Position numbers and translations under genes: made by a program. Below the pieces are notes generated by a model. That model was not told where the DNA came from, ran no database searches, and was given only the letters and a program-made list of their open reading frames with translations. From the IMG/VR virus record IMGVR_UViG_3300026274_000001: a stretch of DNA of 64,000 nucleotides. One strand, written 5' to 3'. Positions 86-59,976 of this stretch are shown in pieces (position 1 is the first letter of the stretch; each line of letters begins with the position of its first letter). Origin of the DNA: a virus. Taxonomy: Duplodnaviria; Caudoviricetes.

Positions 86-122
86 TTGCAACAATGTTCA
101 AGTGAACATATCATTGAGTATG
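86..122 (+). promoter_or_regulatory. early sigma70-type promoter, hairpin family
   Basis: TTGCAA-17-TATCAT; CAAGTGA-N5-TCATTG; ATG at 120 in frame with gene at 141. Confidence 0.75.
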
Positions 123-140
123 ATTAATCAAGGGGGAAAT

Positions 141-500
141 ATGAAGAAACTGATGATGTTGATGCTGCTGTCTGTGGCTACGGTTGCCCATGCGTCAAGC
201 AAGCAAGAATGGGCTGATGCAGTTTGTCGCATCAATGCTAGTGAAGCTTCGGAAATTGCACAGTACCGAGATGCTGGCTTTCCAATCACAGAAGCTTCCA
301 ACCGTGCGATCAAGTTCATGGCAAGCACTGGCCTCTTCAATATGTCCCCTACGTTCAATGATGCCATTATGACTGAGACGTTGGAAATTTATACCACCGA
401 CGTCATCAAGACCGCCCAGCCTGAAGCAATCAAAGAAGCTATTTTGCTGTCGTGTGGTATGGACATTTACGGTGTTCGTCACAGTAAAAAGACGAAATAA
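141..500 (+). CDS. secreted/periplasmic hypothetical protein
   Basis: SD GGGGG; signal peptide MKKLMMLMLLSVATVAHA; Cys near both ends. Confidence 0.75.
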   Translation: MKKLMMLMLLSVATVAHASSKQEWADAVCRINASEASEIAQYRDAGFPITEASNRAIKFMASTGLFNMSPTFNDAIMTETLEIYTTDVIKTAQPEAIKEAILLSCGMDIYGVRHSKKTK

Positions 501-512
501 TTCAGTTGGCAC

Positions 513-552
513 TTGCAACCAGGTTCAAATGAATCTACCATAGGAACATGGT
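513..552 (+). promoter_or_regulatory. early promoter, hairpin family
   Basis: TTGCAA-17-TACCAT; arms ACCAGGTTC/GAACATGGT; ATG at 548 (predicted +1). Confidence 0.85.
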
Positions 553-574
553 AAACAAACGCAAGGAGCAACAA

Positions 575-940
575 ATGGAACTGATGGCAGATACCACCAA
601 TTTCGAATCCCTTACTGTTCGCTGGTTGGCACGGCAGAATGAAGAAGTTGCTGTTGCTCTTGGCCACAAAATGTACTATCAAAGCTTTCACGGTACCAAT
701 GATACTGAAGTTAACGGTGTGTTGGTCGACTTCCAACCGGTACGTGATAGTGCTACGGCATTCAAGCTGATGGTGCAAGAAAACATTCAAGCTCACACTG
801 AACCGCGTGGCGAATACGTGTACGTGACTGCTCATTGCGAAGATGGGCCGGTCTGGTCTAGCACGGTTTTTGCGCACGGTGCTGAAGCCGAAATGCGTCG
901 GCTGATTTGCGTAGCAATCGTCAGCAAATACACGAAGTAG
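575..940 (+). CDS. DUF2591-like phage protein
   Basis: SD AAGGAG; motif DFQPVRDSATAFKL...MRRLICVAIV resembles DUF2591. Confidence 0.6.
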   Translation: MELMADTTNFESLTVRWLARQNEEVAVALGHKMYYQSFHGTNDTEVNGVLVDFQPVRDSATAFKLMVQENIQAHTEPRGEYVYVTAHCEDGPVWSSTVFAHGAEAEMRRLICVAIVSKYTK

Positions 941-958
941 AAATAATTCATTTAGCGC

Positions 959-1000
959 TTTACTTGTGAGTCAAGTGAACGCATCATAGATACATGGTAA
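959..1000 (+). promoter_or_regulatory. early promoter, hairpin family
   Basis: TTTACT-17-CATCAT; CAAGTGA-N5-TCAT; ATGGTAAAC at 994. Confidence 0.75.
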
Positions 1001-1019
1001 ACAACACACGGAGAAATAA

Positions 1020-1469
1020 ATGACTGATCAAGTGAATGTTGCAACTGATGTTAACGGTGTTCGTGAGTGCTTGCCGTTGGGTCCTGTGCACATTTATACG
1101 GTCACGGTGACGAAGTTGCCCTGGGGTGCAGTCGATTCGTGTGTTGCAAGCCTCCCGTTCACTGGTGACGTTACGATCCCGAAAATGTATGTTGACTGGG
1201 CATTGTCGGTTGCTCTTGTTTATGAGTTGTACAAGAAGCTTAACGCGGCACCGATCAACACGGGTATTGTGGCCCTTGTGAAAAGTCTCCGTGACGAAAT
1301 GCATTGCGGATTGACCGAAGCCAAGAAAGTTGCTGACTTGCTGATTGGTCGCAAGAGCGACAAGTACACGAATGCCGGTGGCATTGTTACTGCGTTCATG
1401 TACTACCAGGAAGAAGAAATGACGCTCGCAGAAATCGAAATTCGCAACCAAATGCAAGGACGAAAATGA
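1020..1469 (+). CDS. protein with ribosomal bL12 C-terminal-domain-like motif
   Basis: IVALVKSLRDEMHCGLTEAKKVAD resembles bL12 CTD ([21 protein letters not shown]). Confidence 0.6.
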   Translation: MTDQVNVATDVNGVRECLPLGPVHIYTVTVTKLPWGAVDSCVASLPFTGDVTIPKMYVDWALSVALVYELYKKLNAAPINTGIVALVKSLRDEMHCGLTEAKKVADLLIGRKSDKYTNAGGIVTAFMYYQEEEMTLAEIEIRNQMQGRK

Positions 1470-2695: not shown

Positions 2696-2708
2696 ATTCA
2701 CTTTGTGC

Positions 2709-2748
2709 TTGCAACCACGTTCATATGAAACTAATATACGAGCATGGT
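2709..2748 (+). promoter_or_regulatory. early promoter, hairpin family
   Basis: TTGCAA-17-TAATAT; imperfect 13-bp inverted repeat; ATG at 2744. Confidence 0.85.
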
Positions 2749-2767
2749 AAACGCAAAGGAGAACAAA

Positions 2768-3259
2768 ATGACGGGAACAGCATTGACGCAAGCAGAAAAG
2801 GTAGCACGTCGCGAACAACGTGCAGCAGAACGCGAAGCACAAGAAGCTCGTGACAATGAACGTCGCGAAGTGGAGCGTAAGGAACGTATGGAAAAGATGC
2901 CTGGCATTTTGTTCAACCTGATGCTGCGTGCTGAAATGTTGCGGCGTGCGGGGATGCAAATCAGTTGCAATCTACACAACGAAATCCCCAAAAGCATGGC
3001 ATCAAATAGCGACCATGTTGGTAAGGTCGGCTTGGTATTTGTTATCGATCACCGAGCAAAGACGCTACTGAGTGAAGACTGGAATGAAGAAGTTAGCGTG
3101 TCGATCGATGCTGCCAGTTGGGAAGTGGAATCCATCGAAAACAAATTGAATGAACTGCAAGACGAAGCTGATGAAAGGCTGAAGCGTAAAGCTTTGGCTG
3201 ACGAAGCAAAGAAATTGTTGACGCCGGATCAATTGGCCGCCTTGCGCGAATTCTCCTAA
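2768..3259 (+). CDS. hypothetical protein (coiled-coil ends)
   Basis: SD AAGGAG; charged helical termini. Confidence 0.75.
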   Translation: MTGTALTQAEKVARREQRAAEREAQEARDNERREVERKERMEKMPGILFNLMLRAEMLRRAGMQISCNLHNEIPKSMASNSDHVGKVGLVFVIDHRAKTLLSEDWNEEVSVSIDAASWEVESIENKLNELQDEADERLKRKALADEAKKLLTPDQLAALREFS

Positions 3260-6615: not shown

Positions 6616-7032
6616 ATGGGAAAAGTGGTTGCGCCTGAAGTTATTGCTGAACGCACACTAGAAATAGTGCAGCGTATCTCTCGTCACATTGTGGCGATCG
6701 AAGATCCACGTTCAGTGTTTGGATTCAATTTGTGGTTCAAGAATCGATATGTGAACGTCTACATGCGACAAGGACGTCGTGTCAATGTTGATACTCGAGC
6801 TTGGGTGCATACGTTGGAAATTTCTAGCATCAACGTGAAGACTGAAAAGAAAGGCTACTTCACTTCGTTTCTCAACCAAATGGAAAAGCTAGCTGCAACA
6901 CATGGTTTGACTATTCTGGTTGAAAACGTTGCGAACGAACATTTGCAAGCATTCATGCTTAAGCGTGGATATGCAGAATATCGAAGCCCTGGTGGTGGTG
7001 GTGACTGGCCGCCCACATACTGGCAAGCTTGA
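6616..7032 (+). CDS. GNAT-fold acetyltransferase-like protein
   Basis: LEISSINV...KKGYFTSFLNQME...VENVANEHLQAFMLKRGY. Confidence 0.65.
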   Translation: MGKVVAPEVIAERTLEIVQRISRHIVAIEDPRSVFGFNLWFKNRYVNVYMRQGRRVNVDTRAWVHTLEISSINVKTEKKGYFTSFLNQMEKLAATHGLTILVENVANEHLQAFMLKRGYAEYRSPGGGGDWPPTYWQA

Positions 7033-7050
7033 TTCATTAATATAATTGAC

Positions 7051-7074
7051 TTACAAGGTGTGAACACCTTGTAA
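7051..7074. repeat. perfect 10-bp inverted repeat upstream of gene
   Basis: TTACAAGGTG-TGAA-CACCTTGTAA, preceded by TTGAC. Confidence 0.7.
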
Positions 7075-7089
7075 TCTAAGGAGAAATAC

Positions 7090-7329
7090 ATGCTTTTCAA
7101 AGGCAAGATGCGAATCGAAAGTGGTGTGGGTACATTCATCGATCTTACCAATATCGAAACAAACGCAGTTAAAGTTCTGACTTACGAGTGGTCAAAAAAG
7201 AAAAAAGAGCGTGATGGTGTGGTACCTCAAGTCTCAAAGATTCCAGGGTTTGTGTTCCTGTTCACTACAAACAATGATCATTTCTTTGAGTGCGATTTGG
7301 CAAATTTCATTGCTCTAATGAATTCTTGA
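7090..7329 (+). CDS. hypothetical protein
   Basis: SD AAGGAG. Confidence 0.7.
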   Translation: MLFKGKMRIESGVGTFIDLTNIETNAVKVLTYEWSKKKKERDGVVPQVSKIPGFVFLFTTNNDHFFECDLANFIALMNS

Positions 7330-7352
7330 TGATGTATAAGTTGAAATTATAG

Positions 7353-7387
7353 TAGATTCATTTAACAAGTGAATATACCATATGAAT
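7353..7387 (+). promoter_or_regulatory. early promoter, hairpin family
   Basis: TAGATT-17-TACCAT; CAAGTGAA; ATTCAT/ATGAAT arms. Confidence 0.65.
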
Positions 7388-7409
7388 AACAAAACAACCG
7401 GTAACTACA

Positions 7410-7670
7410 GTGAAACACAAATACATTGTATTCAAGGATGGCAATCTAGAAGATATCATCACATTCTCGGAGTTGATGGATCATAGTCAAGCTGCCCGTG
7501 CACTGGATCGTGACCGCATTATTTCTGCAGGATTTATGGATATTGCGGTAAACGAGCAAGGCAAGCTTGACGTGACGTGTTTCGGTAAAAGTATTACACT
7601 TGAACTACAATCGCGTGGTGACCTGGATAAACGCGTGGCTATGTCGAGACTCTATGGGGAGAGCTACTGA
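7410..7670 (+). CDS. hypothetical protein
   Basis: GTG start; coupled to next gene. Confidence 0.65.
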   Translation: MKHKYIVFKDGNLEDIITFSELMDHSQAARALDRDRIISAGFMDIAVNEQGKLDVTCFGKSITLELQSRGDLDKRVAMSRLYGESY

Positions 7671-8363: not shown

Positions 8364-8369
8364 AACTGC

Positions 8370-8412
8370 TTGCATGCCTTGCCATATGAACTTATCATTT
8401 GAACATGGTAAA
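8370..8412 (+). promoter_or_regulatory. early promoter, hairpin family
   Basis: TTGCAT-17-TATCAT; CATATGA-N5-TCATTTG; ATGGTAAAC at 8405. Confidence 0.88.
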
Positions 8413-8431
8413 CAACTGTGGAGCGCAAACT

Positions 8432-9220
8432 ATGCAAGTATCAGACAAAGCAATTTTTGATTGGTCGCATGTTATCAAGACGCTGCGTACTTTTGTAGCA
8501 TCGCGCGTTAAGACTGACAAAGAGACGCAAGCGTACATCAACCTGATGATGTTCCAGACTGACACGTTCCATGACTACGACAGCATGGACGCGCTCTACA
8601 ATCGCCTCACGGACAGCGTTGATGAACGTGTGTGGGATGCACTCTATGAAGCTATCCATCAAATGGGCGAGCAAATCACGGAGCATTTTGCAGATCCGTG
8701 GAATTTTGCACCCGGCTACACTAAGCCGAAAAAGCTGGTCGTTCCGGATGTTGAACGCTTGTCGCGTGCTGTAACGGACAAGCTGCTGAAGGAAGCCGCA
8801 CCCTTGGTGTTTGATGACATGAAGAAGTATGAAAAGGAACGCAAAGCGTCGCAACTAGCAAGCAAGAAAGCGAAAGCTGCTGCCATTAGCGATGAGCGCG
8901 TGGCGGAGCTGGCAAAGCTCTACAATGACAATCTGCTTGCTGCGTGCGACAAAGCGGTGAGGGGCTTTAAAAAGCGCTTGTGGCCTGACGATATGTCGTT
9001 TTTCGAAATGACTGAAGAGCAGATGAAAGGCTTCAACATTGGTAGCGAGTTTTTGGCAGCGTTGGAGGCAAAGTACCCCGAGCCGGCCAAGCTGTTGGAC
9101 AAGTGCTTCGAAACGGTCATTTACGAGAAAGCATTTACGCGCAAGCGCACCGATGATTTCTGTGCCCTGTATTACGACAAAGCAGGTCGTAAGCGTCTCA
9201 TTGCTGCGATCAGCGCATAA
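8432..9220 (+). CDS. hypothetical protein (262 aa)
   Basis: SD GGAG; long clean ORF. Confidence 0.8.
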   Translation: MQVSDKAIFDWSHVIKTLRTFVASRVKTDKETQAYINLMMFQTDTFHDYDSMDALYNRLTDSVDERVWDALYEAIHQMGEQITEHFADPWNFAPGYTKPKKLVVPDVERLSRAVTDKLLKEAAPLVFDDMKKYEKERKASQLASKKAKAAAISDERVAELAKLYNDNLLAACDKAVRGFKKRLWPDDMSFFEMTEEQMKGFNIGSEFLAALEAKYPEPAKLLDKCFETVIYEKAFTRKRTDDFCALYYDKAGRKRLIAAISA

Positions 9221-9226
9221 TAAGGC

Positions 9227-9265
9227 TTGTAGCCAGACTTAGATGACTATATCATTTGAGTCTGG
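9227..9265 (+). promoter_or_regulatory. early promoter, hairpin family
   Basis: TTGTAG-17-TATCAT; 14-bp stem CCAGACTTAGATGA/TCATTTGAGTCTGG with 2 G-T pairs. Confidence 0.85.
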
Positions 9266-9283
9266 AGGAAATGCAAGGGGTGA

Positions 9284-9496
9284 ATGATGACTGCGATTAT
9301 TTCCGAAGTAGAGCTGTACGGGGAGATGCTAGTAGTTGAGCGTCTTGACAACGGTCTTTACAATGTAGTACATGGCGGGATAATTCGTCATCCTGGCCTC
9401 ACAGCTGAAAATGCTATTGGGGCCATGGCACACTACATTCATAATCTCAACTATTTGCTTTTCAAAGCGAATACGGAATTGAATCGGAATACGTGA
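9284..9496 (+). CDS. hypothetical protein
   Basis: ORF after promoter. Confidence 0.65.
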   Translation: MMTAIISEVELYGEMLVVERLDNGLYNVVHGGIIRHPGLTAENAIGAMAHYIHNLNYLLFKANTELNRNT

Positions 9497-10170: not shown

Positions 10171-10192
10171 TGATATAGGGTTCATTTTCCGC

Positions 10193-10232
10193 TTGATGCT
10201 ATGTTCATATGAAATTACCATATGCTCATAGC
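10193..10232 (+). promoter_or_regulatory. early promoter, hairpin family
   Basis: TTGATG-17-TACCAT; GCTATGTTCATATG/CATATGCTCATAGC. Confidence 0.85.
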
Positions 10233-10252
10233 CAAATAACAGGAGAATGAAT

Positions 10253-10486
10253 ATGACCCCTAAGGTCCGGAAACATATTTTTGAACTGACTAACGCATTC
10301 GCTGAAGTCGAACAAACCGTAGAGACTTGGTCGAACACCAATCGATTCCAAGAACGAGCCCTTCGCACCCTGCAACTGCAACGGGAAACATTGCAAAATT
10401 ACATCGCCCGTCGTAACATGAAAGGTATCATGGCCCTTACTGTGCCGCATGTACACGGAACAAATGTGATTTGGAACGTAGCTTGA
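10253..10486 (+). CDS. hypothetical protein
   Basis: SD AGGAG; start 10247 or 10253. Confidence 0.7.
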   Translation: MTPKVRKHIFELTNAFAEVEQTVETWSNTNRFQERALRTLQLQRETLQNYIARRNMKGIMALTVPHVHGTNVIWNVA

Positions 10487-10525
10487 TTGGTTTGCCAGAT
10501 GAACCTATAATAGGTGTATGGTAAA
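10483..10525 (+). promoter_or_regulatory. early promoter, hairpin family
   Basis: TTGATT-17-TATAAT; TTTGCCA/TGGTAAA arms; ATG at 10518. Confidence 0.85.
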
Positions 10526-10542
10526 CAAACAAGGAACATCAA

Positions 10543-10974
10543 ATGATCGAAGCATTGGCAAATCTACCCACTGACCCAAGTTCTTGGGGCTTGATTGGTG
10601 ATCCCGAAGCGGCTCAAATGGTTGCCAACACGATTGTGGGTTACATTCAAGAAGCAATCAACGAGCAGGAAGAAGACGAACTGGATGAAGGACAACACCT
10701 GTACCTACAGGTGATTGCTACTGGTGCTCAAGATGAGCGTCGTTCATCAGCTGATGGGCTGCTTGAAGGTTTGCGCGATTATATGGATGAAATTTATCCA
10801 GAAAGTGGTGATCCGGGCGACGATGAAGATGAAGACCACTATGGCAATGCTGATGACGCACGCTGTGGTCTCGGTGACACTGAACAGCGCGAAGCCATGT
10901 ACGATCACGTCTACAAGCTGTTTGGTGTTGAAGATCATCAATCCAGTACGTTCGCAGCGTATCGACTGGATTAA
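10543..10974 (+). CDS. highly acidic hypothetical protein
   Basis: About 36 D/E vs 7 K/R in 143 aa (hand count). Confidence 0.75.
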   Translation: MIEALANLPTDPSSWGLIGDPEAAQMVANTIVGYIQEAINEQEEDELDEGQHLYLQVIATGAQDERRSSADGLLEGLRDYMDEIYPESGDPGDDEDEDHYGNADDARCGLGDTEQREAMYDHVYKLFGVEDHQSSTFAAYRLD

Positions 10975-10977
10975 AGC

Positions 10978-11017
10978 TTGCAGCCACGATCAGATGAATA
11001 TATCATTTGAGCATGGT
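10978..11017 (+). promoter_or_regulatory. early promoter, hairpin family
   Basis: TTGCAG-17-TATCAT; CAGATGA-N5-TCATTTG; ATG at 11013. Confidence 0.88.
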
Positions 11018-11038
11018 AAACAACTGGGAGAACTAATC

Positions 11039-11281
11039 GTGATCGAGCAAGTCCAAATTGAAGCAGCAAATGACATCAGCTTGCAACTGGCAGCAAAAAC
11101 CTGTGGTCTCGATGACTGGGGCACACGGTATGAAACTGCAATACTTACTGATGATGCGCTTACGGCGAAGCAGAAGTCATTGTTACAAGTTGGTCTCCGT
11201 AATTGTCACGTAGTTACGCTTCCGCAATACGAGCGTAATAACAGTGGTATGTATCCGTGGGTATCTATTGTTTTTGAATAG
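11039..11281 (+). CDS. hypothetical protein
   Basis: SD GGGAG; GTG start. Confidence 0.6.
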   Translation: MIEQVQIEAANDISLQLAAKTCGLDDWGTRYETAILTDDALTAKQKSLLQVGLRNCHVVTLPQYERNNSGMYPWVSIVFE

Positions 11282-11956: not shown

Positions 11957-11959
11957 ACC

Positions 11960-12005
11960 TTGCTTTGGTTGCCATATGAACTTACTATAAGAATACGGTA
12001 ACCAA
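11960..12005 (+). promoter_or_regulatory. early promoter, hairpin family
   Basis: TTGCTT-17-TACTAT; TTGGTTGCC/GGTAACCAA arms. Confidence 0.85.
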
Positions 12006-12019
12006 ACAAGGGGAACAAA

Positions 12020-12412
12020 ATGTCGACACGTGAACAAGAACTGAATGCAAACGTGATTGAATTTCGCAAGGAATTGGATCGGTCGATCACGCGTGGCGCC
12101 CATCGAATTTCTTTATTCATTGGTCATCTGAAAGAGAATGCGGACACCGCATTTGTTGGGTATGCCGATAAAGCGATGGCCGTAGCCGCTGATATACAAG
12201 TGAAAGAGCAAGTCAGGGCGGCGATCGAACACGGGCTGGCATCAGGTAAGGCAATTGATCTTATTATCAAAGACTTGCACACCTGGGCTCTGAAAACCGC
12301 ATTGAATGCGGCAGAGTATCCGGAACGCAGCACGTCAGTAGTCAGCAACTTCCAAGCCCAACTTCGAGGTGCTGCTTGGGCCGAAATGGTCCGTTCACTA
12401 GAAAGCCTGTAA
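12020..12412 (+). CDS. hypothetical protein
   Basis: SD AAGGGGA. Confidence 0.75.
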   Translation: MSTREQELNANVIEFRKELDRSITRGAHRISLFIGHLKENADTAFVGYADKAMAVAADIQVKEQVRAAIEHGLASGKAIDLIIKDLHTWALKTALNAAEYPERSTSVVSNFQAQLRGAAWAEMVRSLESL

Positions 12413-13864: not shown

Positions 13865-13867
13865 CGC

Positions 13868-13908
13868 TTGATTGTTTGCCATATGAATGTATCATAATCA
13901 ATATGGTA
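13868..13908 (+). promoter_or_regulatory. early promoter, hairpin family
   Basis: TTGATT-16-TATCAT; TGCCATAT/ATATGGTA arms; ATG at 13903 in frame with gene. Confidence 0.85.
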
Positions 13909-13926
13909 CACGACAAGGAGAACAAC

Positions 13927-14115
13927 ATGGATGCAACCACAGCATTGAAGATTATTGATGGCTACGAATCGTCATTGACGGTAGCTCAAATTTACGACGA
14001 TGACGATCAGTTTGCTGATGCAATGCTGTCGTTGTTTCCGCATTTCGAATATCCGGACTTTTCACATTTGACCGTGAAACAAGTGCTGGGACAATACGGA
14101 CGGATTGCAAAATGA
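13927..14115 (+). CDS. hypothetical protein
   Basis: SD AAGGAG. Confidence 0.7.
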   Translation: MDATTALKIIDGYESSLTVAQIYDDDDQFADAMLSLFPHFEYPDFSHLTVKQVLGQYGRIAK

Positions 14116-14827: not shown

Positions 14828-15366
14828 TGGATAAGCTATCAAAAATTACGGCATTTTTACTGCTGTATCATAATTATCACCGCACGGCGGACGACTACAA
14901 ACTAGTTGGGCCGGTGGTAGCTAAGCTATTGCTTAACGACGTGGTGACTCTCCTTCGTGATGAAGGGACGGAAATTCATGAGCTTGAAGAATACCATTAT
15001 GGTATGACTCAGTTGATTGCTGACTGTGCTCTATTGCAAGCACACGGTTATATTGAGTCTCGACATGTCAAGAAGATCCTCAAAGACTGCTGGAATTATC
15101 CCTATGTGGGGTTTGATCTAGTGCAGTATGCCCATGCATCTAAAATCTTTGATGAAGCTAGTGGTGACTCTCTTATGATTGAAGTGCGTGCGGTACTGGC
15201 TGATGTCAACTATGCGAAAACTGTCGAACAGGTGAAGGGTGGTAGGGACAAAGCCATCGGCGCTCTCGTTGGTGCAGTAATGAAGAAGGTGAAGGGCGAT
15301 CCCAAGCAGATTAAAGAAATGCTGGCAAGCGAAATGGGCGTAACCCTATCAGCATTAAGCAGTTGA
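14827..15366 (+). CDS. stand-alone GatB/YqeY C-terminal (tRNA-binding tail) domain protein
   Basis: VKKILKDCW...VRAVLADVNYAKTVEQVKGGRDKAIGALVGAVMKKVKGDPKQIKEML. Confidence 0.75.
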   Translation: MDKLSKITAFLLLYHNYHRTADDYKLVGPVVAKLLLNDVVTLLRDEGTEIHELEEYHYGMTQLIADCALLQAHGYIESRHVKKILKDCWNYPYVGFDLVQYAHASKIFDEASGDSLMIEVRAVLADVNYAKTVEQVKGGRDKAIGALVGAVMKKVKGDPKQIKEMLASEMGVTLSALSS

Positions 15367-15403
15367 TGTACCGCTCAAGTGAGTTTATCATTTGAATATG
15401 GTA
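15363..15403 (+). promoter_or_regulatory. early promoter, hairpin family
   Basis: TTGATG-17-TATCAT; CAAGTGA-N5-TCATTTG; ATG at 15398. Confidence 0.88.
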
Positions 15404-15420
15404 AACACACAGGAGCGGTA

Positions 15421-15759
15421 ATGATCAAAATCCGTTATACGGCATCTGATTCAGTTGCTATGGCCGATGCCAACGTCAAGCTGTTTGTTAGTGAAATGAT
15501 TGCTCGCAATAAGCGTGGCGAGAATTGCCACAATGTAGCGATTTCAAATGAATCAGTCATCTTCGAATTTCGTATTCGTATTGGACTTGGTGAGCTGACA
15601 AACACGGATATTGAAATTGTAGATGCGCGTGACATTGATAACGTGATGGTGCTGCCGATCGAAACGAATGGCGGTCTGGGAACTAATGTCCCGGCCAACT
15701 TCTGTGACTTTACCTCCTTGCAAGCTCTTGAATTACTTGGTGCAATGCTAAAGAAATAA
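15421..15759 (+). CDS. paralog family A member (IFEFR motif)
   Basis: Similar to 16082 and 16472; SD AGGAG. Confidence 0.75.
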   Translation: MIKIRYTASDSVAMADANVKLFVSEMIARNKRGENCHNVAISNESVIFEFRIRIGLGELTNTDIEIVDARDIDNVMVLPIETNGGLGTNVPANFCDFTSLQALELLGAMLKK

Positions 15760-16081: not shown

Positions 16082-16417
16082 ATGGAAAACTTGTACTGGA
16101 TAACATACGACGATCAGAATGGCGACGTGGTGCCGGACGGTAAAGTTCGTCAATATGTAGATGACTTCTTGACGGGACCTACCCGTTCGTGCGTCGTTGG
16201 CTCAAGTTTATTGATCGATGAATTCCGTATGTTGGTAGTTCGAGGCTTGGTTGCTGGAAATCAAGTTCGAGTTAATTATGATGGCGAGTGGCATCCCATC
16301 AATGCCAATGCAGTACTGGTAAAGTATCCGCCAGATTTGAGCTTGCATTACGCTAGTGAATTGCTTCGTTTTTCATGCAGGAAACAACGAGCTGAACGAG
16401 AATCATCCAACTGTTGA
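16082..16417 (+). CDS. paralog family A member
   Basis: YDDQNGDVVPDG...VGSSLLIDEFRMLVVRG. Confidence 0.75.
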   Translation: MENLYWITYDDQNGDVVPDGKVRQYVDDFLTGPTRSCVVGSSLLIDEFRMLVVRGLVAGNQVRVNYDGEWHPINANAVLVKYPPDLSLHYASELLRFSCRKQRAERESSNC

Positions 16418-16454
16418 TTCTTAGCTCAAGTGAACGTATCATTTGAATATGGTA
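16414..16454 (+). promoter_or_regulatory. early promoter, hairpin family
   Basis: TTGATT-17-TATCAT; near-copy of the 15363 element; ATG at 16449. Confidence 0.88.
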
Positions 16455-16471
16455 AACGCATAGGAGTTTAA

Positions 16472-16834
16472 ATGATATCGATTCACTACGATGCAATGAA
16501 CGGATTTTCTGTACCGGATGCGGGAGCAGCACTTTATGTTGATGCTGCTCTTGAAACTGCTAAGGAATTCAACCCGGAAAATCCGGAACTGTTCCTTACT
16601 GTCGGCTGCGAATCGATCATCGATGAATTTCGTGTTCGAGTTGTTCGTAAGGAAATCAAGCCGGAGCAAATTGAATTTCTCTTTACTGATCCCGAAGGAA
16701 TCAAGCACGTTCTCAAGTGCACTGAAGTTGGTTCGATCACACCGTGGCCGTACGACTTCTGCAGCAGCAAGATCAAGGCTATTCAAGAAATTGGACGTGC
16801 ACGTCGTAGCAAGGGAGCGAACAATGCCCAATAA
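16472..16834 (+). CDS. paralog family A member
   Basis: YDAMNGFSVPDA...VGCESIIDEFRVRVVRK. Confidence 0.75.
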   Translation: MISIHYDAMNGFSVPDAGAALYVDAALETAKEFNPENPELFLTVGCESIIDEFRVRVVRKEIKPEQIEFLFTDPEGIKHVLKCTEVGSITPWPYDFCSSKIKAIQEIGRARRSKGANNAQ

Positions 16835-17117: not shown

Positions 17118-17128
17118 TCACATAAGCA

Positions 17129-17162: not shown

Positions 17163-17184
17163 ATCATTGTTTAGGGAGAGTGAA

Positions 17185-32823: not shown

Positions 32824-32840
32824 ATTTGTTCATTTGGTGC

Positions 32841-32882
32841 TTGACTGGTTACCAGGTGAGTGTATCATTTGATACATGGTAA
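32841..32882 (+). promoter_or_regulatory. early promoter, hairpin family
   Basis: TTGACT-16-TATCAT; CAGGTGA-N5-TCATTTG; ATG at 32876 in frame with gene. Confidence 0.88.
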
Positions 32883-32902
32883 ACAACGTTAAGGAGCTAC
32901 AA

Positions 32903-33247
32903 ATGTCGAAGCAAACGAAAATCCTGTCCCTCGAAGACTTCCTTGTAGATGTGAACGACGGTAAGATGTTTACTGTGACGTTTGTTAAGAAGACGGACGG
33001 CGAGCTGCGCACTATGACTGCACGTCGCGGCGTTAGCAAGGGCGTTAAGGGAGTTGCAATTGATCGCGCAGGTGAAGACAAGCGTAACAACGTTCTTACC
33101 GTGTATGACATGCAAAAGCTGGAAGAAGGCAAGGATGAAAAAGGTGCTTTCCGGCGCATCAACCTGGAGTCGCTGGTTTCCTTGAAGCACAAGGGCAAGC
33201 AGTACGCTTACGCACACGCACGCCAAGAGTTTGTTGAACTGGCATAA
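32903..33247 (+). CDS. WYL_2/DUF2693-like SH3-fold protein
   Basis: FTVTFVKKTDGELRTMTA...VYDM...AFRRINLESL. Confidence 0.7.
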   Translation: MSKQTKILSLEDFLVDVNDGKMFTVTFVKKTDGELRTMTARRGVSKGVKGVAIDRAGEDKRNNVLTVYDMQKLEEGKDEKGAFRRINLESLVSLKHKGKQYAYAHARQEFVELA

Positions 33248-36049: not shown

Positions 36050-36052
36050 CTC

Positions 36053-36091
36053 TTGTGTGATTCACCTTGCGAAGCTATCATATGAATTATG
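36053..36091 (+). promoter_or_regulatory. early promoter, hairpin family
   Basis: TTGTGT-17-TATCAT; TGATTCA/TGAATTA arms; ATG at 36089. Confidence 0.75.
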
Positions 36092-36111
36092 GTTAAACGC
36101 AAGGATATAAA

Positions 36112-36423
36112 ATGAATATTGGTGTACATACTTCCCACTGCTGCGCTCGTCATGGCTGCAAATACAGCAACGATGAATGCCCCGTGGTGCTTGGCACGCA
36201 TAAGCAGGAGTACCCCTGTGAGTTCTGCGGAGAGGAAGCAATTCAACTCGAACACGACGCGCAATACTTCGCAACGCACCCAGATCGATTCATTGAATTG
36301 CTTCAGGCAATTAATATGGCTCCTGAAATTGAAGAAGGAATTCATCGGGTAATAAAGGATGCTCTTAAGCAGTTTGGAATTGATACGAGTGAAACTGAAT
36401 TGACTGGAGCCAAAAATGTCTGA
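36112..36423 (+). CDS. Cys/His-rich hypothetical protein
   Basis: HCCARHGCKY...CP...CEFC. Confidence 0.7.
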   Translation: MNIGVHTSHCCARHGCKYSNDECPVVLGTHKQEYPCEFCGEEAIQLEHDAQYFATHPDRFIELLQAINMAPEIEEGIHRVIKDALKQFGIDTSETELTGAKNV

Positions 36424-41301: not shown

Positions 41302-41484
41302 TTACGGATAATAAACCGTCCAATCCACGTCACGCCATGCTTCTTCGAGAACATCGATGTACTTCATCAATTCTTCTTTCGTCATACGATCCGGAGCACC
41401 CTGGGGAGCATGTGCGTGAAGAACAATCTTTTGCATCGCATCACGAAGTGCCAGTTCCGTAATACGATCGCTATCATAAGCCAT
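41302..41484 (-). CDS. hypothetical protein
   Basis: SD AAGGAG. Confidence 0.7.
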   Translation of the reverse strand: MAYDSDRITELALRDAMQKIVLHAHAPQGAPDRMTKEELMKYIDVLEEAWRDVDWTVYYP

Positions 41485-41499
41485 TTCGTTCTCCTTTCT

Positions 41500-41543
41500 G
41501 TTTACCATGTTCAAATGATACATTCACCTAAACATGGTTGCAA
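41500..41543 (-). promoter_or_regulatory. early promoter, hairpin family
   Basis: TTGCAA-17-TATCAT; 15-bp stem with 3 G-T pairs; ATG at 41508. Confidence 0.9.
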
Positions 41544-41548
41544 GCATT

Positions 41549-41890
41549 TTATTCATCCGACCATTCGTTTATGGGAACGCTACCAGTTTCAGCTAGCAGT
41601 TTTTCGCCATCCCAGGCAAGGAAGAATAAGTTCTCTGCATAACCACCTTCATTGTCGTCTTCCCAAAGAAAGGAATTGTTGTGGCGGTGAATTGCCATCA
41701 CGACCCATTCTTCGTAGCCTTGAGCTGCAAATGCTTCAACCAATTCTTCACACGTAATGTCCTTGAACATTACGTCATCACCGTCCATTGTGACGCGATC
41801 ACCGTATTTGGCTTTGCACGAATTAAACAATTCAACGTAAGCTTGCTTGCGCGGAAAATGCGAGTTCTTGAGGGTGACTTCAACTTTCAT
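41549..41890 (-). CDS. hypothetical protein
   Basis: SD AAGGAG. Confidence 0.75.
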   Translation of the reverse strand: MKVEVTLKNSHFPRKQAYVELFNSCKAKYGDRVTMDGDDVMFKDITCEELVEAFAAQGYEEWVVMAIHRHNNSFLWEDDNEGGYAENLFFLAWDGEKLLAETGSVPINEWSDE

Positions 41891-41912
41891 CTTGTTCTCC
41901 TTGTTTACAGAC

Positions 41913-41950
41913 CAGGTTCAAATGATATACTCACTTGAACATGCAAGCAA
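41913..41950 (-). promoter_or_regulatory. early promoter, hairpin family
   Basis: TTGCTT-17-TATCAT; CATGTTCAAGTGA/TCATTTGAACCTG. Confidence 0.88.
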
Positions 41951-41959
41951 GCTTTTCCT

Positions 41960-44261: not shown

Positions 44262-44702
44262 TTATTTGGCTTTGTCAGGGAATATCATCATAGTGCGCAT
44301 GAATGGATCATATTCCATAAACGTAGTCATGTACATTTCTTTACCGCAAAAATACACTTTGTTGGTGCCACCACCAGCCACCTTACCGTCATACTTGCTC
44401 CATACGAAATCCGGAGCATACGGATCACCAGCGATTGCAACAAACCTCATCAGGTTCGCAGTCATTTCGTTATCGGTGCGGCTAGCGTGATGCTTGAGCC
44501 CTTTGTATTGATGTACCCCAAGTAAGCACAATTCCAAACCAACTTGACCCAGAATTACTTTAAGGATTTCATATTGCTCTCGGTATATACGTGAGAATCC
44601 GAAGTCGTCTGGGTGGCCTACGAATGTTTGGGTGGGGAATTTGAGCGTTTTCTTTTCGAAACCAGTTCGAATACGCGGGGGATAGTTGTGGGGATAATAC
44701 AC
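44262..44702 (-). CDS. hypothetical protein
   Basis: SD GGAGG; GTG start. Confidence 0.7.
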   Translation of the reverse strand: MYYPHNYPPRIRTGFEKKTLKFPTQTFVGHPDDFGFSRIYREQYEILKVILGQVGLELCLLGVHQYKGLKHHASRTDNEMTANLMRFVAIAGDPYAPDFVWSKYDGKVAGGGTNKVYFCGKEMYMTTFMEYDPFMRTMMIFPDKAK

Positions 44703-44711
44703 AGCACCTCC

Positions 44712-44759
44712 TGAAGTTTTACCATACTAGATGATAGCTTCAGTTGGTGCATAAATCAA
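44712..44759 (-). promoter_or_regulatory. early promoter, hairpin family
   Basis: TTGATT-17-TATCAT; TGA-N5-TCA; ATGGTAAAA at 44725. Confidence 0.8.
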
Positions 44760-44761
44760 AC

Positions 44762-52339: not shown

Positions 52340-52639
52340 TTAATCTTCGTCGTCTGGGAAATCTTCAGCATCTTGTTGAATCGCGTTCCACAATGCTTCT
52401 TTTACGATCACTTCCCACAAAAAGCCATCGGGGTGATCTTCGTTGAACATGTCAACTTCGACAAACTTAAGTGGAACATTGTGATCCAGAGCGAAGTTGT
52501 TTGCTTGCGTAATAACTTCGTCAATTTCTTCTTCCGTGAAGTCACTGAACAACTCCAGAAATTCTTGAAAAACGCGATCAGTTGGGAAATATTGTTCCAG
52601 TTCATCATCACGTAGTGACTGTACTTGCTTGTTCACCAT
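52340..52639 (-). CDS. highly acidic hypothetical protein
   Basis: About 28 D/E vs 5 K/R in 99 aa (hand count). Confidence 0.75.
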   Translation of the reverse strand: MVNKQVQSLRDDELEQYFPTDRVFQEFLELFSDFTEEEIDEVITQANNFALDHNVPLKFVEVDMFNEDHPDGFLWEVIVKEALWNAIQQDAEDFPDDED

Positions 52640-52656
52640 TTCTGTTCCCCTTGTTT

Positions 52657-52700
52657 GTTTACCATGTTCAAATGATACATTCACCTAAACATGGTTACAA
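52657..52700 (-). promoter_or_regulatory. early promoter, hairpin family (41-bp identical to 41499-41539)
   Basis: TTGTAA-17-TATCAT; ATG at 52665. Confidence 0.9.
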
Positions 52701-52703
52701 GCG

Positions 52704-53695: not shown

Positions 53696-54259
53696 TTAGT
53701 CTGCGTCAAATGCCGTGATATACACTTTATGGCCAACCAGAAGTTCCAGTTCCTTGGAAGCTTTTGCCCTGTCGTAACGGTTACTGATATTACGGATGCT
53801 GAATTGGTAGCCAGTACCAAAGCCTGAGGGGTGATACGAGTGGACTTTACCAGCTTTGAGTGTTGCGATCATGTTGTCGATCGCCTCTTGGGTCATGAAC
53901 AAAGTGACCGGGCCCAAGTTGCATTTGGTGCTGCTTGCAAGACGCTGTTGTGCTTTGCGAGCGCGTTCGACTTGCTCTTGGAACTGTTTTCGAAGTATGT
54001 CCAGTGACTCGAAGTAGAAGCTAGCTTCTACTCCTAGACGATCGAATGAAAATTCCGAACCCGCAGCTTTGTACCGTGTTTCGCAGTGGACATACTTGCC
54101 CGAAAACGTCATTTCGATTCGCATACCATCACCGACGGGTAACGACATAATAAGCGTTTCGCTGTTTCCACTTGGCGTGCGTTCGACCGTGGTGGGCGGA
54201 ATTTCACGTGCAAATTCTTCCATCTTTTCTTGAACGAAATCGATCAGTTCCATCTGCAT
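53696..54259 (-). CDS. hypothetical protein
   Basis: SD GGAG. Confidence 0.75.
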   Translation of the reverse strand: MQMELIDFVQEKMEEFAREIPPTTVERTPSGNSETLIMSLPVGDGMRIEMTFSGKYVHCETRYKAAGSEFSFDRLGVEASFYFESLDILRKQFQEQVERARKAQQRLASSTKCNLGPVTLFMTQEAIDNMIATLKAGKVHSYHPSGFGTGYQFSIRNISNRYDRAKASKELELLVGHKVYITAFDAD

Positions 54260-54270
54260 ATCTCCGGTAG

Positions 54271-54312
54271 TGTCCATTACCAGATGATATGTTCATGTAA
54301 ATGAAAAAGCAA
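54271..54312 (-). promoter_or_regulatory. early promoter, hairpin family
   Basis: TTGCTT-17-TATCAT; ATG at 54277 in frame with gene. Confidence 0.85.
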
Positions 54313-54317
54313 GCCGT

Positions 54318-54345
54318 AAAAAAGGACCCTTGTAGGATCCTTTTC
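54318..54345 (-). terminator. intrinsic terminator after the kinase gene
   Basis: AAAAGGATCCT-ACA-AGGGTCCTTTTTT on the - strand. Confidence 0.75.
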
Positions 54346-57554: not shown

Positions 57555-57594
57555 TTGTTAACCAGATGATGCATTCACCTGACCAGTAAGTCAA
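57555..57594 (-). promoter_or_regulatory. early promoter, hairpin family
   Basis: TTGACT-17-CATCAT; CAGGTGA-N5-TCATCTG. Confidence 0.85.
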
Positions 57595-58196
57595 GCGCTT
57601 GCTACCATAGTAAAGTAATTCCATCCTTCGTTCATCATCCCGTGGTTGGCGATCTTCGGATTTTTCCTGCCCTTGGCCCAAGTGTATTCAACTTTCTCGT
57701 CGTAATGATCGTAAATTTCCAGCTTGTGGTACTTGGCAACACTACGCCAAGTACGAACTGCCTGTTCGCCAATGTTAGTGCTTGAATGAATTCGTTTCAA
57801 TCGATTGATAGCACCCAAGTACAGAACGGTTCCTAGTCCACGCCCACGATATTGATTGCAGAGATAGACCGCTCCAACCCTATAACCTAGCTCTTCAGGT
57901 GAACAATCATTGGACAACCTAATCATACCAATATATTCACGACCATCTTTCAAATAGATGAAATGCTCTTTGTATTGATCTTTGATGTAAAATAGATCCA
58001 GGCCATCTTTACTACCTAGATGTTTTGGTTTCTTTCGATTTACTGCCTGCTCGATAGTAGTAATTGACCACTCGAAGCTCGATTTACTGTAATTGGTGCC
58101 GGAGACAATGTTCATAGATGAAAACAAGTTGATGCCACAATTGGCAACTGCCAACAGTACACTAGAACAAATTGACTGCAAAGCTTTTGTTGCCAT
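57591..58196 (-). CDS. GNAT-fold acetyltransferase
   Basis: VGAVYLCNQYRGRGLGTVLY...GEQAVRTW; start uncertain. Confidence 0.75.
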   Translation of the reverse strand: MATKALQSICSSVLLAVANCGINLFSSMNIVSGTNYSKSSFEWSITTIEQAVNRKKPKHLGSKDGLDLFYIKDQYKEHFIYLKDGREYIGMIRLSNDCSPEELGYRVGAVYLCNQYRGRGLGTVLYLGAINRLKRIHSSTNIGEQAVRTWRSVAKYHKLEIYDHYDEKVEYTWAKGRKNPKIANHGMMNEGWNYFTMVASA

Positions 58197-58270
58197 ATTG
58201 CAATAAATTTATTTCTAACTGGCAACTTGTAGTAAACTGGCGGTAGTTTCACCTATAAGAAGAATCTTAA

Positions 58271-58663
58271 ATGAAAAAACTAAAAATTGCAGCAGTGCTT
58301 ATGTTCATACTGGCTATTGCTGGTTGTGACGATGGGGTAATAGCTGCTAAAAAAATGAACCCGGTAATCACCAACATTGGTGACTTCGACGGTTGTAATG
58401 TGAAGTATGTTGATCGTGGGTATACGAGTGATTCATTCTTTATGGCTAAGTGTGGCGACACCGTGACCCAGTCCAATACATATCAATCTGGTAAGACCTC
58501 GCAGCGTATGATGACAATAACGCAGAAGATCAATGATTTGACTGCTGAGCGTGCTGCTTTGGTTAAAGAAGAAGAAGCAAAACAAGCAGCATTGGCCAAA
58601 TTATCGGTACAGGACCAAACAGCTTTGGGAATTATACCTCCGGCGAGCCAACCACCACAATGA
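58271..58663 (+). CDS. lipoprotein with coiled-coil tail
   Basis: Lipobox IAGC. Confidence 0.75.
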   Translation: MKKLKIAAVLMFILAIAGCDDGVIAAKKMNPVITNIGDFDGCNVKYVDRGYTSDSFFMAKCGDTVTQSNTYQSGKTSQRMMTITQKINDLTAERAALVKEEEAKQAALAKLSVQDQTALGIIPPASQPPQ

Positions 58664-58860
58664 AAAAACTGTTCTGGGTCCCCGCATCGATGGTGCTGTT
58701 TTTTGTTGGTTTTGCTGGTTTCTTTTTTGTGTCGATCCTTGCTGTTATTGGCATGGGTCTCAATTTTGTTGCTGAGGGTCTAGGACTTATTTTTGATTGG
58801 TATCAAATTCAACTTTTACATCTCTTACGCTATGTGGGAAAGAAGGCATTCAATGACTAA
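58660..58860 (+). CDS. small membrane protein
   Basis: Very hydrophobic; ATGA overlap. Confidence 0.65.
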   Translation: MKKLFWVPASMVLFFVGFAGFFFVSILAVIGMGLNFVAEGLGLIFDWYQIQLLHLLRYVGKKAFND

Positions 58861-59503
58861 ATGGATTGATGGTAATCCTTATGAAATTGGCGCCACTATT
58901 GCTATAATGGCACTTTACATTTGGGCAAAACTGAGTTTGCACAACGAACAGAAACAAAAGAAAATGAAAAAAGTAATTAATATCCTGCTAGCAATGATTG
59001 CATTGCTAGCCACTCCAGCATTTGCGTATCAGATGGATGTTGCTTGCCATGCTGATGTTGAATTCAGTCCGAATGGCGGTGGCGAAGCTATGGTAGTTCA
59101 AGCTATCGGCACGGCACAAAACCAGATTTTGTTGCAAGCATACAACTTTACCTCACCAGCGATCTTGAATGCTTTGGCTATTGCAAAAAGTCAAAAGCAT
59201 GTAGATGTCCGCTTCATTCTGGACAAGAGTAATGAAGAAGCCCGTTACGCTCCTATCATTGAGCAGTTGGCTCAATTGGGTATTCCTATCGTTACTGACT
59301 ATTCAGTAGCCATTGCACATAACAAGGTGATCATCATTGATGGCACTGATGTGATTACTGGTAGCTTCAATTTCACGATGTCTGCGCAGCGTCGCAATGC
59401 GGAGAATGTGATTTGGTTTATGCATTGCCCAGCATTAGCCATACCGTATATTCAGAATTGGAAAAACCGATTGGCTGTATCACGTCCCTATAACCCAAGA
59501 TAG
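58853..59503 (+). CDS. phospholipase D family (Nuc-like) endonuclease, exported
   Basis: HNKVIIID + GSFNF + NAEN; signal peptide from ATG 58964; upstream in-frame ATG 58853 adds a TM segment. Confidence 0.85.
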   Translation: MTKWIDGNPYEIGATIAIMALYIWAKLSLHNEQKQKKMKKVINILLAMIALLATPAFAYQMDVACHADVEFSPNGGGEAMVVQAIGTAQNQILLQAYNFTSPAILNALAIAKSQKHVDVRFILDKSNEEARYAPIIEQLAQLGIPIVTDYSVAIAHNKVIIIDGTDVITGSFNFTMSAQRRNAENVIWFMHCPALAIPYIQNWKNRLAVSRPYNPR

Positions 59504-59508
59504 ACTAA

Positions 59509-59706
59509 ATGGCTTCCATAGAATTTCTTAACTGTATAGAAATATTTCTGATATTTCTAGTGATACTGTGTTTTTACGGAATATGTTATTTCGTATTGTC
59601 ATTAATTACCGACTTCATGGGTCTTTGCGTATTCAAACTGGGTACTTTAATTTGGACACCAGAAGAAATAGAAGCATTCACAACTAAATTTAAAAAAGAA
59701 AAATGA
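59509..59706 (+). CDS. small membrane protein
   Basis: Hydrophobic. Confidence 0.55.
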   Translation: MASIEFLNCIEIFLIFLVILCFYGICYFVLSLITDFMGLCVFKLGTLIWTPEEIEAFTTKFKKEK

Positions 59707-59951
59707 TATTTCTTCTTGTAATGTATGCGGTAGTTGCTGCCATTAGTCTAGGTAGCACGCTTTACACCGTATCTAGTCTGGGTGAAAATTCAACTAATGC
59801 TCAAACAGCTAGGTTGTTTTTGAGTTTGGTATCATTTGTGGTTGGTATCGTTATGATTGACGGGCTTCCCATTCCTGCGTTCATTGTGCTAAGTTTGAGC
59901 ATGGTGTTCAGCAACTGGGGTTATCTGTTTAAAAGTTACTTTACTAAGTGA
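59703..59951 (+). CDS. small multi-TM membrane protein
   Basis: Three hydrophobic segments; ATGA overlap. Confidence 0.6.
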   Translation: MIFLLVMYAVVAAISLGSTLYTVSSLGENSTNAQTARLFLSLVSFVVGIVMIDGLPIPAFIVLSLSMVFSNWGYLFKSYFTK

Positions 59952-59976
59952 ATGATTCACCTTATAATGAACTATG
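59940..59976 (+). promoter_or_regulatory. sigma70-type promoter
   Basis: TTTACT-17-TATAAT; GTGAAT/ATTCAC dyad; ATG at 59974. Confidence 0.6.

Follow-up and report, generated by a model that had tools for sequence, protein, structure and literature searches.

An ATG at the predicted transcription start of a repeated phage promoter cassette: second ribosome entry route or part of a conserved initial transcribed block?

Introduction

Why does an ATG recur at the predicted transcription start of promoters whose genes also have a Shine-Dalgarno (SD) site and a start codon of their own? The question is raised by a stretch of 64,000 nucleotides (nt) from a virus of the class Caudoviricetes (IMG/VR record IMGVR_UViG_3300026274_000001; the whole stretch is referred to here as the window), which is a dense array of small genes. 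A preliminary description of the window reported 17 promoters with an ATG placed 6 to 8 nt past the −10 hexamer and interpreted these ATGs as a second, SD-independent route by which ribosomes enter the early mRNAs of the phage. The structural premises of this interpretation stood, but the comparative tests gave no support to a selected entry route, and the alternative offered in the same description, namely that ATGG is only a preferred initial transcribed sequence or part of a hairpin arm, fits the data better. We favor, with a probability of roughly 55%, the reading that the ATGs belong to a promoter and leader cassette whose transcribed part opens with five bases that also serve as a hairpin arm, and that the 5′ AUGs, together with any ribosome binding that they attract, would be a by-product of this arrangement.

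The ATG as the first triplet of a conserved block

All 17 ATGs were located at 6 to 8 nt past a −10 hexamer, and every gene behind them is also SD-led. The hexamer upstream of each ATG is of the TATCAT, TACCAT or TATAAT type and is preceded, at a distance of 17 nt (18 nt at 32876), by a cTTGAC-like −35 box. Promoters of this class were identified with a weight matrix derived solely from the 36 nt up to and including the −10 hexamer; the ATG is invisible to this matrix, so there is no circularity in counting how often it follows. In the window, the matrix finds 29 promoters at a score of at least 14 and 35 at a score of at least 11, with none in the reversed sequence, and an ATG is present at the 6th to 8th nt past the −10 in 13 of the 29, against an expectation of 5.1% (p = 4.8e-10). 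The remaining four sites (13903, 32876, 36089 and 59974) are weaker or spacing variants. At about 16 to 20 further class promoters of the window, other triplets stand at this place (ATA, ATC, AAC, CTG, ACG and others), and the three non-ATG variants that had been reported, CTG at 9262, ACG at 11995 and ATC at 17489, were confirmed.

Relatives were located by searching public contigs for the motif that runs from the −10 to the initial transcribed sequence. In IMG/VR, a stricter 18-nt pattern led to a single true match, IMGVR_UViG_3300037418_001546 (hereafter G001), the hits in nine other contigs being chance matches, while a looser 30-nt pattern gave single matches that were mostly due to chance and only one that was real, in the 290-kb contig IMGVR_UViG_3300044693_000177 (G002). 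G001 is a genome of 523,836 bp with terminal repeats that is rated complete. Both carry the cassette, and at least 11 metagenome contigs with the motif were found among the matches listed. G001 is distinct from the genome to which the window belongs, as few of its genes can be aligned; these are syntenic and have nucleotide identities of 67 to 78%. The cassette family covers distant genomes whose coding DNA can be aligned only in patches. The lineage is one of huge phages of soil and peat, and the sequencing runs that bear window DNA carry soil and peat labels. A megablast search of INPHARED found no close phage relative of the window, nor did a tblastn search with its 713-residue protein. Six soil RNA runs contain the window stretch as contigs, at a depth that resembles that of the DNA run.

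The matrix finds about 86 to 100 promoters in G001 and 19 in G002, and 0 to 4 in reversed controls (window and G001). After the removal of near-duplicates, the promoters of the window, G001, G002 and the metagenome contigs (at least 11) formed a pooled set of 194, of which 122 have the ATG. Base conservation was assessed in a motif-aligned set of 129 motif-bearing promoters, and in this set the A of the ATG, earlier predicted to be the +1 nucleotide, is the best-predicted start, with C or T at −1 in 126 of the 129 promoters and A at +1 in 125. A pyrimidine followed by a purine, at 7 nt from the −10, makes this A a very plausible start. The information content is 1.75 at A1, 1.36 at T2, 1.74 at G3, and 1.70 at both G4 and T5, and past +5 it falls slowly, from 1.31 to 0.97 over A6 to C9, with 1.04 at A11. 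Thus, T2 is the least conserved base of the codon, and G4 and T5 are about as conserved as A1 and G3. Where GTAAAC is intact, the first triplet is ATG in 82 promoters, ACG in 9, AAG in 3 and ATA in 2, which makes ACG the commonest variant in the family. Given that G4 to A11 are conserved and that ACG is favored, a start codon alone is an insufficient explanation, and the conserved unit, as judged from these alignments, is the 9- to 11-nt block ATGGTAAACAA and not the ATG codon alone.

In the reading that we favor, this block would be the initial transcribed part of an early-promoter cassette in which a sigma70-type cTTGAC box stands 17 nt ahead of TATCAT, after which come a discriminator of 6 nt with C as its last base, an A at +1 and an SD site about 15 nt further on. 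The ATG would be the first triplet of the block and would recur because the cassette recurs, the uniformity of the cassette being kept by selection on the whole of it and by exchange between its copies. Transcripts initiated at these promoters would very probably begin with pppAUGGUAAAC, and some 70S ribosomes may bind to this 5′ AUG, as E. coli precedent suggests, in which case the binding would be a by-product and not a selected entry route.

A hairpin around the −10 element

The ATG also lies in a hairpin. In the sense strand, a stem of up to 15 base pairs (bp) with a 5-nt loop encloses the −10 hexamer and spans from the spacer (about −30) to +5. Its 5′ arm is the promoter spacer, with the consensus ACCATGTTCAaATGA, and its 3′ arm runs from the TCAT of the −10 through the discriminator into ATGGT, so that the ATG forms the outer part. 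When the 45 nt from the edge of the −35 box to +9 were folded, the mean minimum free energy (MFE) was −11.1 kcal/mol for the sense strand, compared with −10.0 for the antisense strand (p = 1e-5) and −5.0 for shuffled sequences, and 25% of the promoters, as opposed to 0.1% of the shuffles, had an MFE of −15 kcal/mol or lower. Examples in the window are the folds at 41514 and 52671 (−18.3 kcal/mol, z about −5.7) and at 17157 (−17.9 kcal/mol). The best copies have stems of 14 to 15 bp (−18 to −20 kcal/mol), and half of the promoters are weaker than −10 kcal/mol.

The two arms vary together. Among the 194 promoters, 1119 Watson-Crick pairs are formed, against 944 ± 18 when the arms are swapped between promoters (z 9.8), and A·C mismatches are depleted (z −5.1), whereas G·T pairs are not (z −1.9). 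Compensated variants are found at 9256 and 10222 in the window and, in G001, as four perfect stems that differ in sequence (266892, 275739, 278296 and 320952). The tolerance of G·T pairs and the better folding of the sense strand point to RNA rather than to a cruciform or a protein site, and the comparisons as a whole indicate that the hairpin is real, covarying and a feature of the sense strand.

The TCAT of TATCAT pairs with a near-invariant ATGA in the spacer of class promoters (for instance, in 41482-41544, 9226-9270 and 17127-17171), and this pairing may explain why the −10 is TATCAT rather than TATAAT. The spacer also holds a TTCA-NN-TGAA palindrome, at about −24 to −15 (for example, 528-537), which is conserved above the level of the −35 box; its TGAA half is found in about 98% of the matrix matches, although the matrix itself favors TGAA. 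Beyond its role in pairing, this palindrome might act as an additional promoter element or be bound by a regulator.

Since the left arm is present only in RNA that enters from the upstream gene, the hairpin would be a feature of polycistronic read-through RNA. In the 20-kb plus-strand array, 23 intrinsic terminators were found, compared with 17 ± 4.5 in shuffled sequences; as this is not above chance, read-through RNA with both arms is to be expected. The hairpin was also considered as an intrinsic terminator in its own right and was rejected, given that no U tract follows the stem and that the terminator scan is at chance level. The proposal that the right arm masks the AUG in read-through transcripts agrees with the predicted folds, 84 of 122 of which leave no base of the AUG unpaired. 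In such RNA, the hairpin could have a role in processing, stability or insulation.

The bases at +1 to +5 in the right arm match their consensus in 68 to 78% of the promoters, and their partner columns do so in 30 to 57%. Furthermore, ATG has a frequency of 51 to 71% in every bin of hairpin strength, including 51% where there is essentially no hairpin, and its exact CAT partner is present in only 41 of 102 cases. Because the right arm outconserves its partner, the ATG does not depend on pairing and the conservation extends to +11, the ATGGTAAACAA block is constrained in its own right, be it at the DNA level, as part of the promoter or of the initial transcribed sequence, or in RNA, where it forms the 5′ end of the primary transcript.

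The 5′ AUG as a possible selected site for ribosomes

The alternative that survives best is that the 5′-terminal AUG is adaptive in itself, recruiting 70S ribosomes independently of the SD, and that the hairpin hides it in read-through RNA. It might do so by offering ribosomes a standby or loading site that serves the SD-led start some 24 to 27 nt downstream, or by being a true leaderless start that yields fused or coupled products. The premise that 70S ribosomes can bind to an SD-led mRNA through an AUG at its 5′ terminus is correct for E. coli (PMC4965119). For instance, ptrB has a leader of 26 nt, and ribosomes depend on its 5′ AUG to bind at the coding sequence; a standby role has been proposed for this AUG (PMC4965119). 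The geometry of the phage cassettes matches that of ptrB, the predicted +1 is the A of an ATG in 122 of the 194 promoters, and the pairing of the AUG in most read-through folds is what such gating would call for.

The frame relations between the 17 ATGs of the window and their genes, rederived by hand and by script, are as had been described: eight are in frame, four open a mini open reading frame (mini-ORF) whose stop overlaps the start codon of the gene, two open one that stops ahead of it and three are out of frame. In the pooled set, an SD-like site and the start of an ORF of at least 30 codons lie 17 to 32 nt past the ATG in 111 of the 122 ATG promoters, and the distances modulo 3 divide as 50/26/35 (chi-square p = 0.019; in frame, 45%, binomial p = 0.007). 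The cassettes are paralogous and share leaders, and once the leaders were clustered at 85% similarity, the in-frame excess across the genome and its relatives was gone, with a division of 16/9/18 in the 43 clusters (p = 0.21; in frame, p = 0.35). Promoters without the ATG split 19/19/19. A standby role would require no frame bias, and negative frame tests are thus compatible with it.

Other signs of translation were sought with similar results. In-frame mini-ORFs have stops in 3 of 50 cases, compared with 12 of 117, which is not significant, and the run-on length of out-of-frame mini-ORFs is not significantly shorter than that of controls (p = 0.21 and 0.06). Translational coupling was rejected, as ATGA overlaps are not enriched in the usable frame; these overlaps follow from a general preference for A at +4, which is common in all classes (22/47, 15/24, 22/34 and 30/57). 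It was also conceivable that the AUG compensates for a weak SD, but promoters with the ATG have slightly stronger SD sites than those without it (duplex energies of −7.96 and −7.28 kcal/mol, respectively).

Neither the ATG nor its frame follows the gene. Among 28 homologous gene pairs in which both members have class promoters, the ATG is found in both members of 13 pairs, in one member of 11 and in neither member of 4, and it is thus discordant in 11 of the 24 pairs with at least one ATG. Of the 13 pairs with two ATGs, the frame class is equal in 5, close to chance, and differs in 8. For example, the ATG at 41508 in the window is in frame at 24 nt, and that of its G001 counterpart (290684) lies at 26 nt, out of frame. 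Because the ATG and its frame differ between homologues, N-terminally extended proteoforms would not be a conserved property of any gene.

We thus see no robust coding signature at the 5′ ATG in these comparisons. The comparative tests give no support to a selected second entry route: conservation is spread over the block and reaches +11, beyond the reach of a start codon; G4 and T5 outrank T2 in conservation; among the variants ACG, a triplet that cannot act as a leaderless start, is the most frequent; clustering of the leaders removes the frame bias; homologues are discordant; the presence of the ATG goes with no weakening of the SD site; and about 40% of the class works without an ATG.

Several observations nevertheless weigh against the by-product reading. 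In some relatives, genes at class promoters start 7 to 10 nt past the −10, have no SD and are preceded by an in-frame stop just upstream. One of them, at 11893-12195 of contig L025 (431893-432195 in G001), has no SD, and its cREC_REC domain begins at residue 3; another, at 6981-7493 on the minus strand of contig L074, also has no SD and matches HD_4 from residue 12 (E = 7.6e-5, below the family cut-off). A weaker candidate, at 477 of contig L058, has no Pfam family and possibly a downstream SD-led GTG. These leaderless-looking genes support the predicted position of the start, and leaderless initiation, or more broadly the use of 5′-proximal AUGs, probably occurs in this system. In addition, leader stops are found in 15 of 61 out-of-frame mini-ORFs, compared with 32 of 273 in the same gene-relative frames elsewhere (p = 0.014). 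This comparison is controlled for gene-relative frame, its p value ignores the relatedness of the promoters, and it is the only positive signal among the translation tests, besides which stands the raw in-frame excess as it was before the leaders were clustered. Moreover, ATGGTAAAC itself appears to be read by something, as the bases from +1 to +5 outconserve their pairing partner, and the general influence of the initial transcribed sequence on promoter escape is not known to require conservation that is so specific to position. Taken together, these points keep a selected 5′ AUG in play as a minority possibility, with the by-product reading ahead of it.

A bolder proposal is that a hairpin-gated 5′ AUG serves, on the model of ptrB, as an SD-independent loading site on most early mRNAs, where the stem would lock the AUG in read-through RNA or a double-strand-specific RNase would cut and regenerate an AUG-proximal end, such that each gene would be served by a dual-entry mRNA regardless of the promoter of origin. 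We regard this as distinctly unlikely. A phage RNase III gene (PF14622) was found in neither G001 nor G002, so a host enzyme would be needed for cleavage, and the negative result does not speak against the action of such an enzyme; a gene for ribosomal protein S21 (PF01165) was also sought in the two and was found in neither.

Improbable readings: a site in DNA or a hairpin arm only

It is very doubtful that the element is a site at the DNA level, in which a 35-bp near-palindrome centered near −13, or its right half, would act as an operator for a phage or host regulator or extrude as a supercoiling-sensitive cruciform, with the ATG as part of the site. The invariant TTCA-NN-TGAA core and the ATGGTAAAC segment across +1 are indeed placed where repressors usually act, and cruciform extrusion is feasible for an arm of such dimensions (up to 15 bp, 5-nt loop). 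However, the arms covary between promoters, which a sequence-specific protein would not tolerate, and the tolerance of G·T but not of A·C, with the better folding of the sense strand, indicates a single strand, that is, RNA. Besides, ATGGTAAAC lacks a counterpart in the left half, where the −35 box takes up the corresponding place.

Least credible of all is that ATGG is kept purely to pair with the CCAT of the spacer, with no function at the 5′ end, since the strong covariation and the compensated variants (CTGG/CCAG, ATAG/CTAT, ATTA/TAAT and ATGA/TCAT) that speak for it are set against a right arm that is better conserved than the left, an ATG that persists in half of the near-hairpinless promoters, an exact CAT partner in only 41 of 102 cases, and conservation that continues past the stem to +11.

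Comparison with known systems

The closest parallel is offered by the SD-led mRNAs of E. coli that begin with a 5′ upstream AUG (Beck, Fleming and Janssen 2016; PMC4965119), for which mapped starts and measurements of 70S binding and of translation are available from a scattered set of unrelated genes. The phage cassettes have the same arrangement of a 5′ AUG (here predicted), a leader, an SD site and a downstream start, as well as leaders of a similar length (about 20 to 27 nt, compared with 26 nt in ptrB) and mini-ORFs that may be in frame, overlapping or out of frame. They differ in that the AUG lies within a repeated block of 9 to 11 nt in more than 100 paralogous phage cassettes, where it is also part of a hairpin arm. 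In leaderless mRNAs, such as that of lambda cI transcribed from PRM, the 5′-terminal AUG is the ribosome-binding signal (PMC9031893; structure in PMC10491246). Only a few genes of relatives at the same promoter class (at 431893 in G001 and 7493 in L074) resemble these, whereas all 17 genes of the window keep a leader, a strong SD site and a start codon of their own and are therefore not leaderless.

Another likeness is to the promoter-early stem-loop (PeSL) elements of T4-like phages. As described in two reports (PMC2839356, PMC4122927), PeSLs are short conserved, repeated intergenic cassettes that precede small early genes, each combining a promoter of sigma70-like type with a stem-loop, an SD site and a start codon; their copies are similar enough to recombine, and relatives place different genes behind the same cassette. 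The text consulted describes no conserved AUG at +1 for PeSLs, and it places the stem-loop upstream of the −35, where it is read as a terminator, whereas in the present cassettes the stem encloses the −10, reaches +5 and is followed by no U tract. The window has the PeSL-like trait of a repeated sigma70-like promoter with an SD site and a start codon between small genes, in 29 to 35 copies.

In T7-type phages, RNase III processing hairpins stand between the early genes; they are longer and irregular, have an internal loop and are not known to overlap a promoter. As in those phages, polycistronic early RNA of the window would form a stable hairpin shortly before each ribosome-binding site, in a gene array with no terminators above chance. 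The promoters of the N4 virion RNA polymerase have a stem of 5 to 7 bp and a 3-nt loop in the template DNA strand and are not known to have sigma70 −35 and −10 boxes. The inverted repeat centered near −12 or −13 of an early promoter is similar, but the present cassettes have stems of up to 15 bp around a 5-nt loop, their boxes are canonical with a spacing of 17 nt and the signal is in the sense strand.

The cassettes of the window

In the eight cassettes in which the ATG is in frame with the gene, no stop codon intervenes. The first (85..143, plus strand) has a TATCAT that ends at 114, an ATG at 120 (6th nt) and the SD-led ATG at 141, a distance of 21 nt. On the same strand, ATGGTAAAC is found at 548 (cassette 512..577; gene ATG at 575, 27 nt; MFE −10.1 kcal/mol), at 2744 (2708..2770; gene ATG at 2768, 24 nt), at 8405 (8369..8434; gene ATG at 8432, 27 nt) and, behind an 18-nt spacer and a 7-nt discriminator, at 32876 (32838..32905; gene ATG at 32903, 27 nt), while a cassette with a weaker matrix score (13866..13929) has ATGGTACAC at 13903, the 8th nt, and its gene ATG at 13927, 24 nt away. 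The two others are on the minus strand. One (41482..41544) has ATGGTAAAC at 41508, a gene ATG at 41484 (24 nt) and a perfect hairpin of 15 bp (MFE −18.3 kcal/mol, z −5.6). The other (54251..54313) has ATGGAC at 54277, in frame with ATGs at 54259 and 54253, of which the latter suits the SD spacing better. A canonical terminator, with a GC-rich stem and a T run, lies directly upstream of the promoter of this last cassette (54313-54345, minus strand; promoter 54283), an order of terminator and then promoter that recalls PeSLs and that no other cassette of the window shows.

Where the mini-ORF overlaps the gene start, its TGA overlaps the gene ATG at 1020 as ATGA (ATGGTAAAC at 994; 958..1022, plus strand), its TAA overlaps the gene ATG at 15421 (ATGGTAAAC at 15398; 15362..15423, plus strand; MFE −12.2 kcal/mol), its TGA overlaps the gene ATG at 36112 in a weak member of the class with a score of 12.8 (ATGGTTAAAC at 36089; 36052..36114, plus strand) or it ends as ATGGTGA across the gene ATG at 52639 (ATGGTAAAC at 52665; 52637..52701, minus strand; MFE −18.3 kcal/mol). 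Two plus-strand mini-ORFs stop earlier, one with TAA before the GTG at 11039 (ATGGTAAAC at 11013; 10977..11041; MFE −12.6 kcal/mol) and one with TAG before the gene ATG at 16472 (ATGGTAAAC at 16449; 16413..16474). The out-of-frame sites are ATGGTAAAC at 10518, 25 nt from the gene ATG at 10543 (10482..10545, plus strand); ATGGTAAAA at 44725, the 6th nt, 23 nt from the GTG at 44702 (44700..44760, minus strand); and ATGGAAAC at 59974, 22 nt from the gene ATG at 59996 (59935..59998, plus strand), where the promoter is sigma70-like but outside the matrix class, with a TATAAT −10 and a spacer palindrome of its own.

Four cassettes of the same class illustrate the variants. Two of them, on the plus strand, have no ATG and a compensating left arm: at 9226..9286, CTGG at 9262 belongs to a 14-bp hairpin (CCAGACT/AGTCTGG; MFE −19.7 kcal/mol, z −6.3), and at 10192..10249, the +1 is the start of ATAG (GCTATG/CATAGC; MFE −13.7 kcal/mol, z −4.9). 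The ACG variant at 11995 reads ACGGTAACC (11959..12022, plus strand), and a minus-strand cassette (41879..41951) has CTGG at +1, where its homologue in G001 (291142) bears ATGGTAAAC. A further copy of ATGGTAAAC, with an overlapping ACGGTAAAC, is found at 19142-19157 (plus strand) within an ORF (18938-19405) with no promoter upstream and is probably a chance or remnant copy.

In a subset of the cassettes, a TAAATTCATTTGG-type block lies between the upstream stop codon and the −35 box (500-512, 940-958, 2695-2708 and 32820-32838), and it may be a UP-element-like part of the cassette. Some leaders in the relatives are long (44 to 56 nt) and have an apparent extra small hairpin (GCAGC...GCTGC) before the SD, as at 320402 and 314466 in G001 and at 5017 in contig L077.

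Copies of the cassette can be very similar; those at 41514 and 52671 share 41 identical nt ahead of unrelated genes, as exchange of sequence between copies would produce. Contigs break or branch at the cassettes in the DNA run and in three RNA-labelled runs (558-560, 1005-1008, 2771, 8383-8416, 10481-10535, 13866-13896 and 16426-16455), which indicates that the cassettes are repeats shared within the phage and among co-occurring relatives. In the assembly graphs of the DNA and RNA runs, loose ends at these branches enter other genes, and one of them matches the contig of a relative. Such branching is consistent with gene swapping at the cassettes, although repeats shared by co-occurring strains would look alike.

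Elsewhere in the window, the plus-strand gene at 28453-29916 encodes a 487-residue Ro-like, TROVE-type RNA-binding protein (phrog_850, E = 2e-141) with about 49% identity to its counterparts in Rak2-like jumbo phages, and the minus-strand gene at 54353-56377 encodes a protein of 674 residues that matches PHROG families, including one with a kinase annotation.

Implications

The placement of a promoter within a hairpin is a more unusual feature of these cassettes than the ATG itself. Were the starts to be mapped to the predicted positions, this phage lineage would provide the largest natural set of SD-led mRNAs with a 5′-terminal AUG, from more than 100 paralogous promoters, and its natural variants (ACG, CTG, ATA and all three frames) would be built-in controls for the standby idea, which has so far been based on a few E. 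coli genes. If, as we judge more likely, the AUG is a by-product, about 40% of these genes would receive a false N-terminal extension of 6 to 9 residues beginning with MVN in annotation, and the wider lesson would be that an ATG found repeatedly at +1 may have no role as a start codon if it is part of a longer conserved block.

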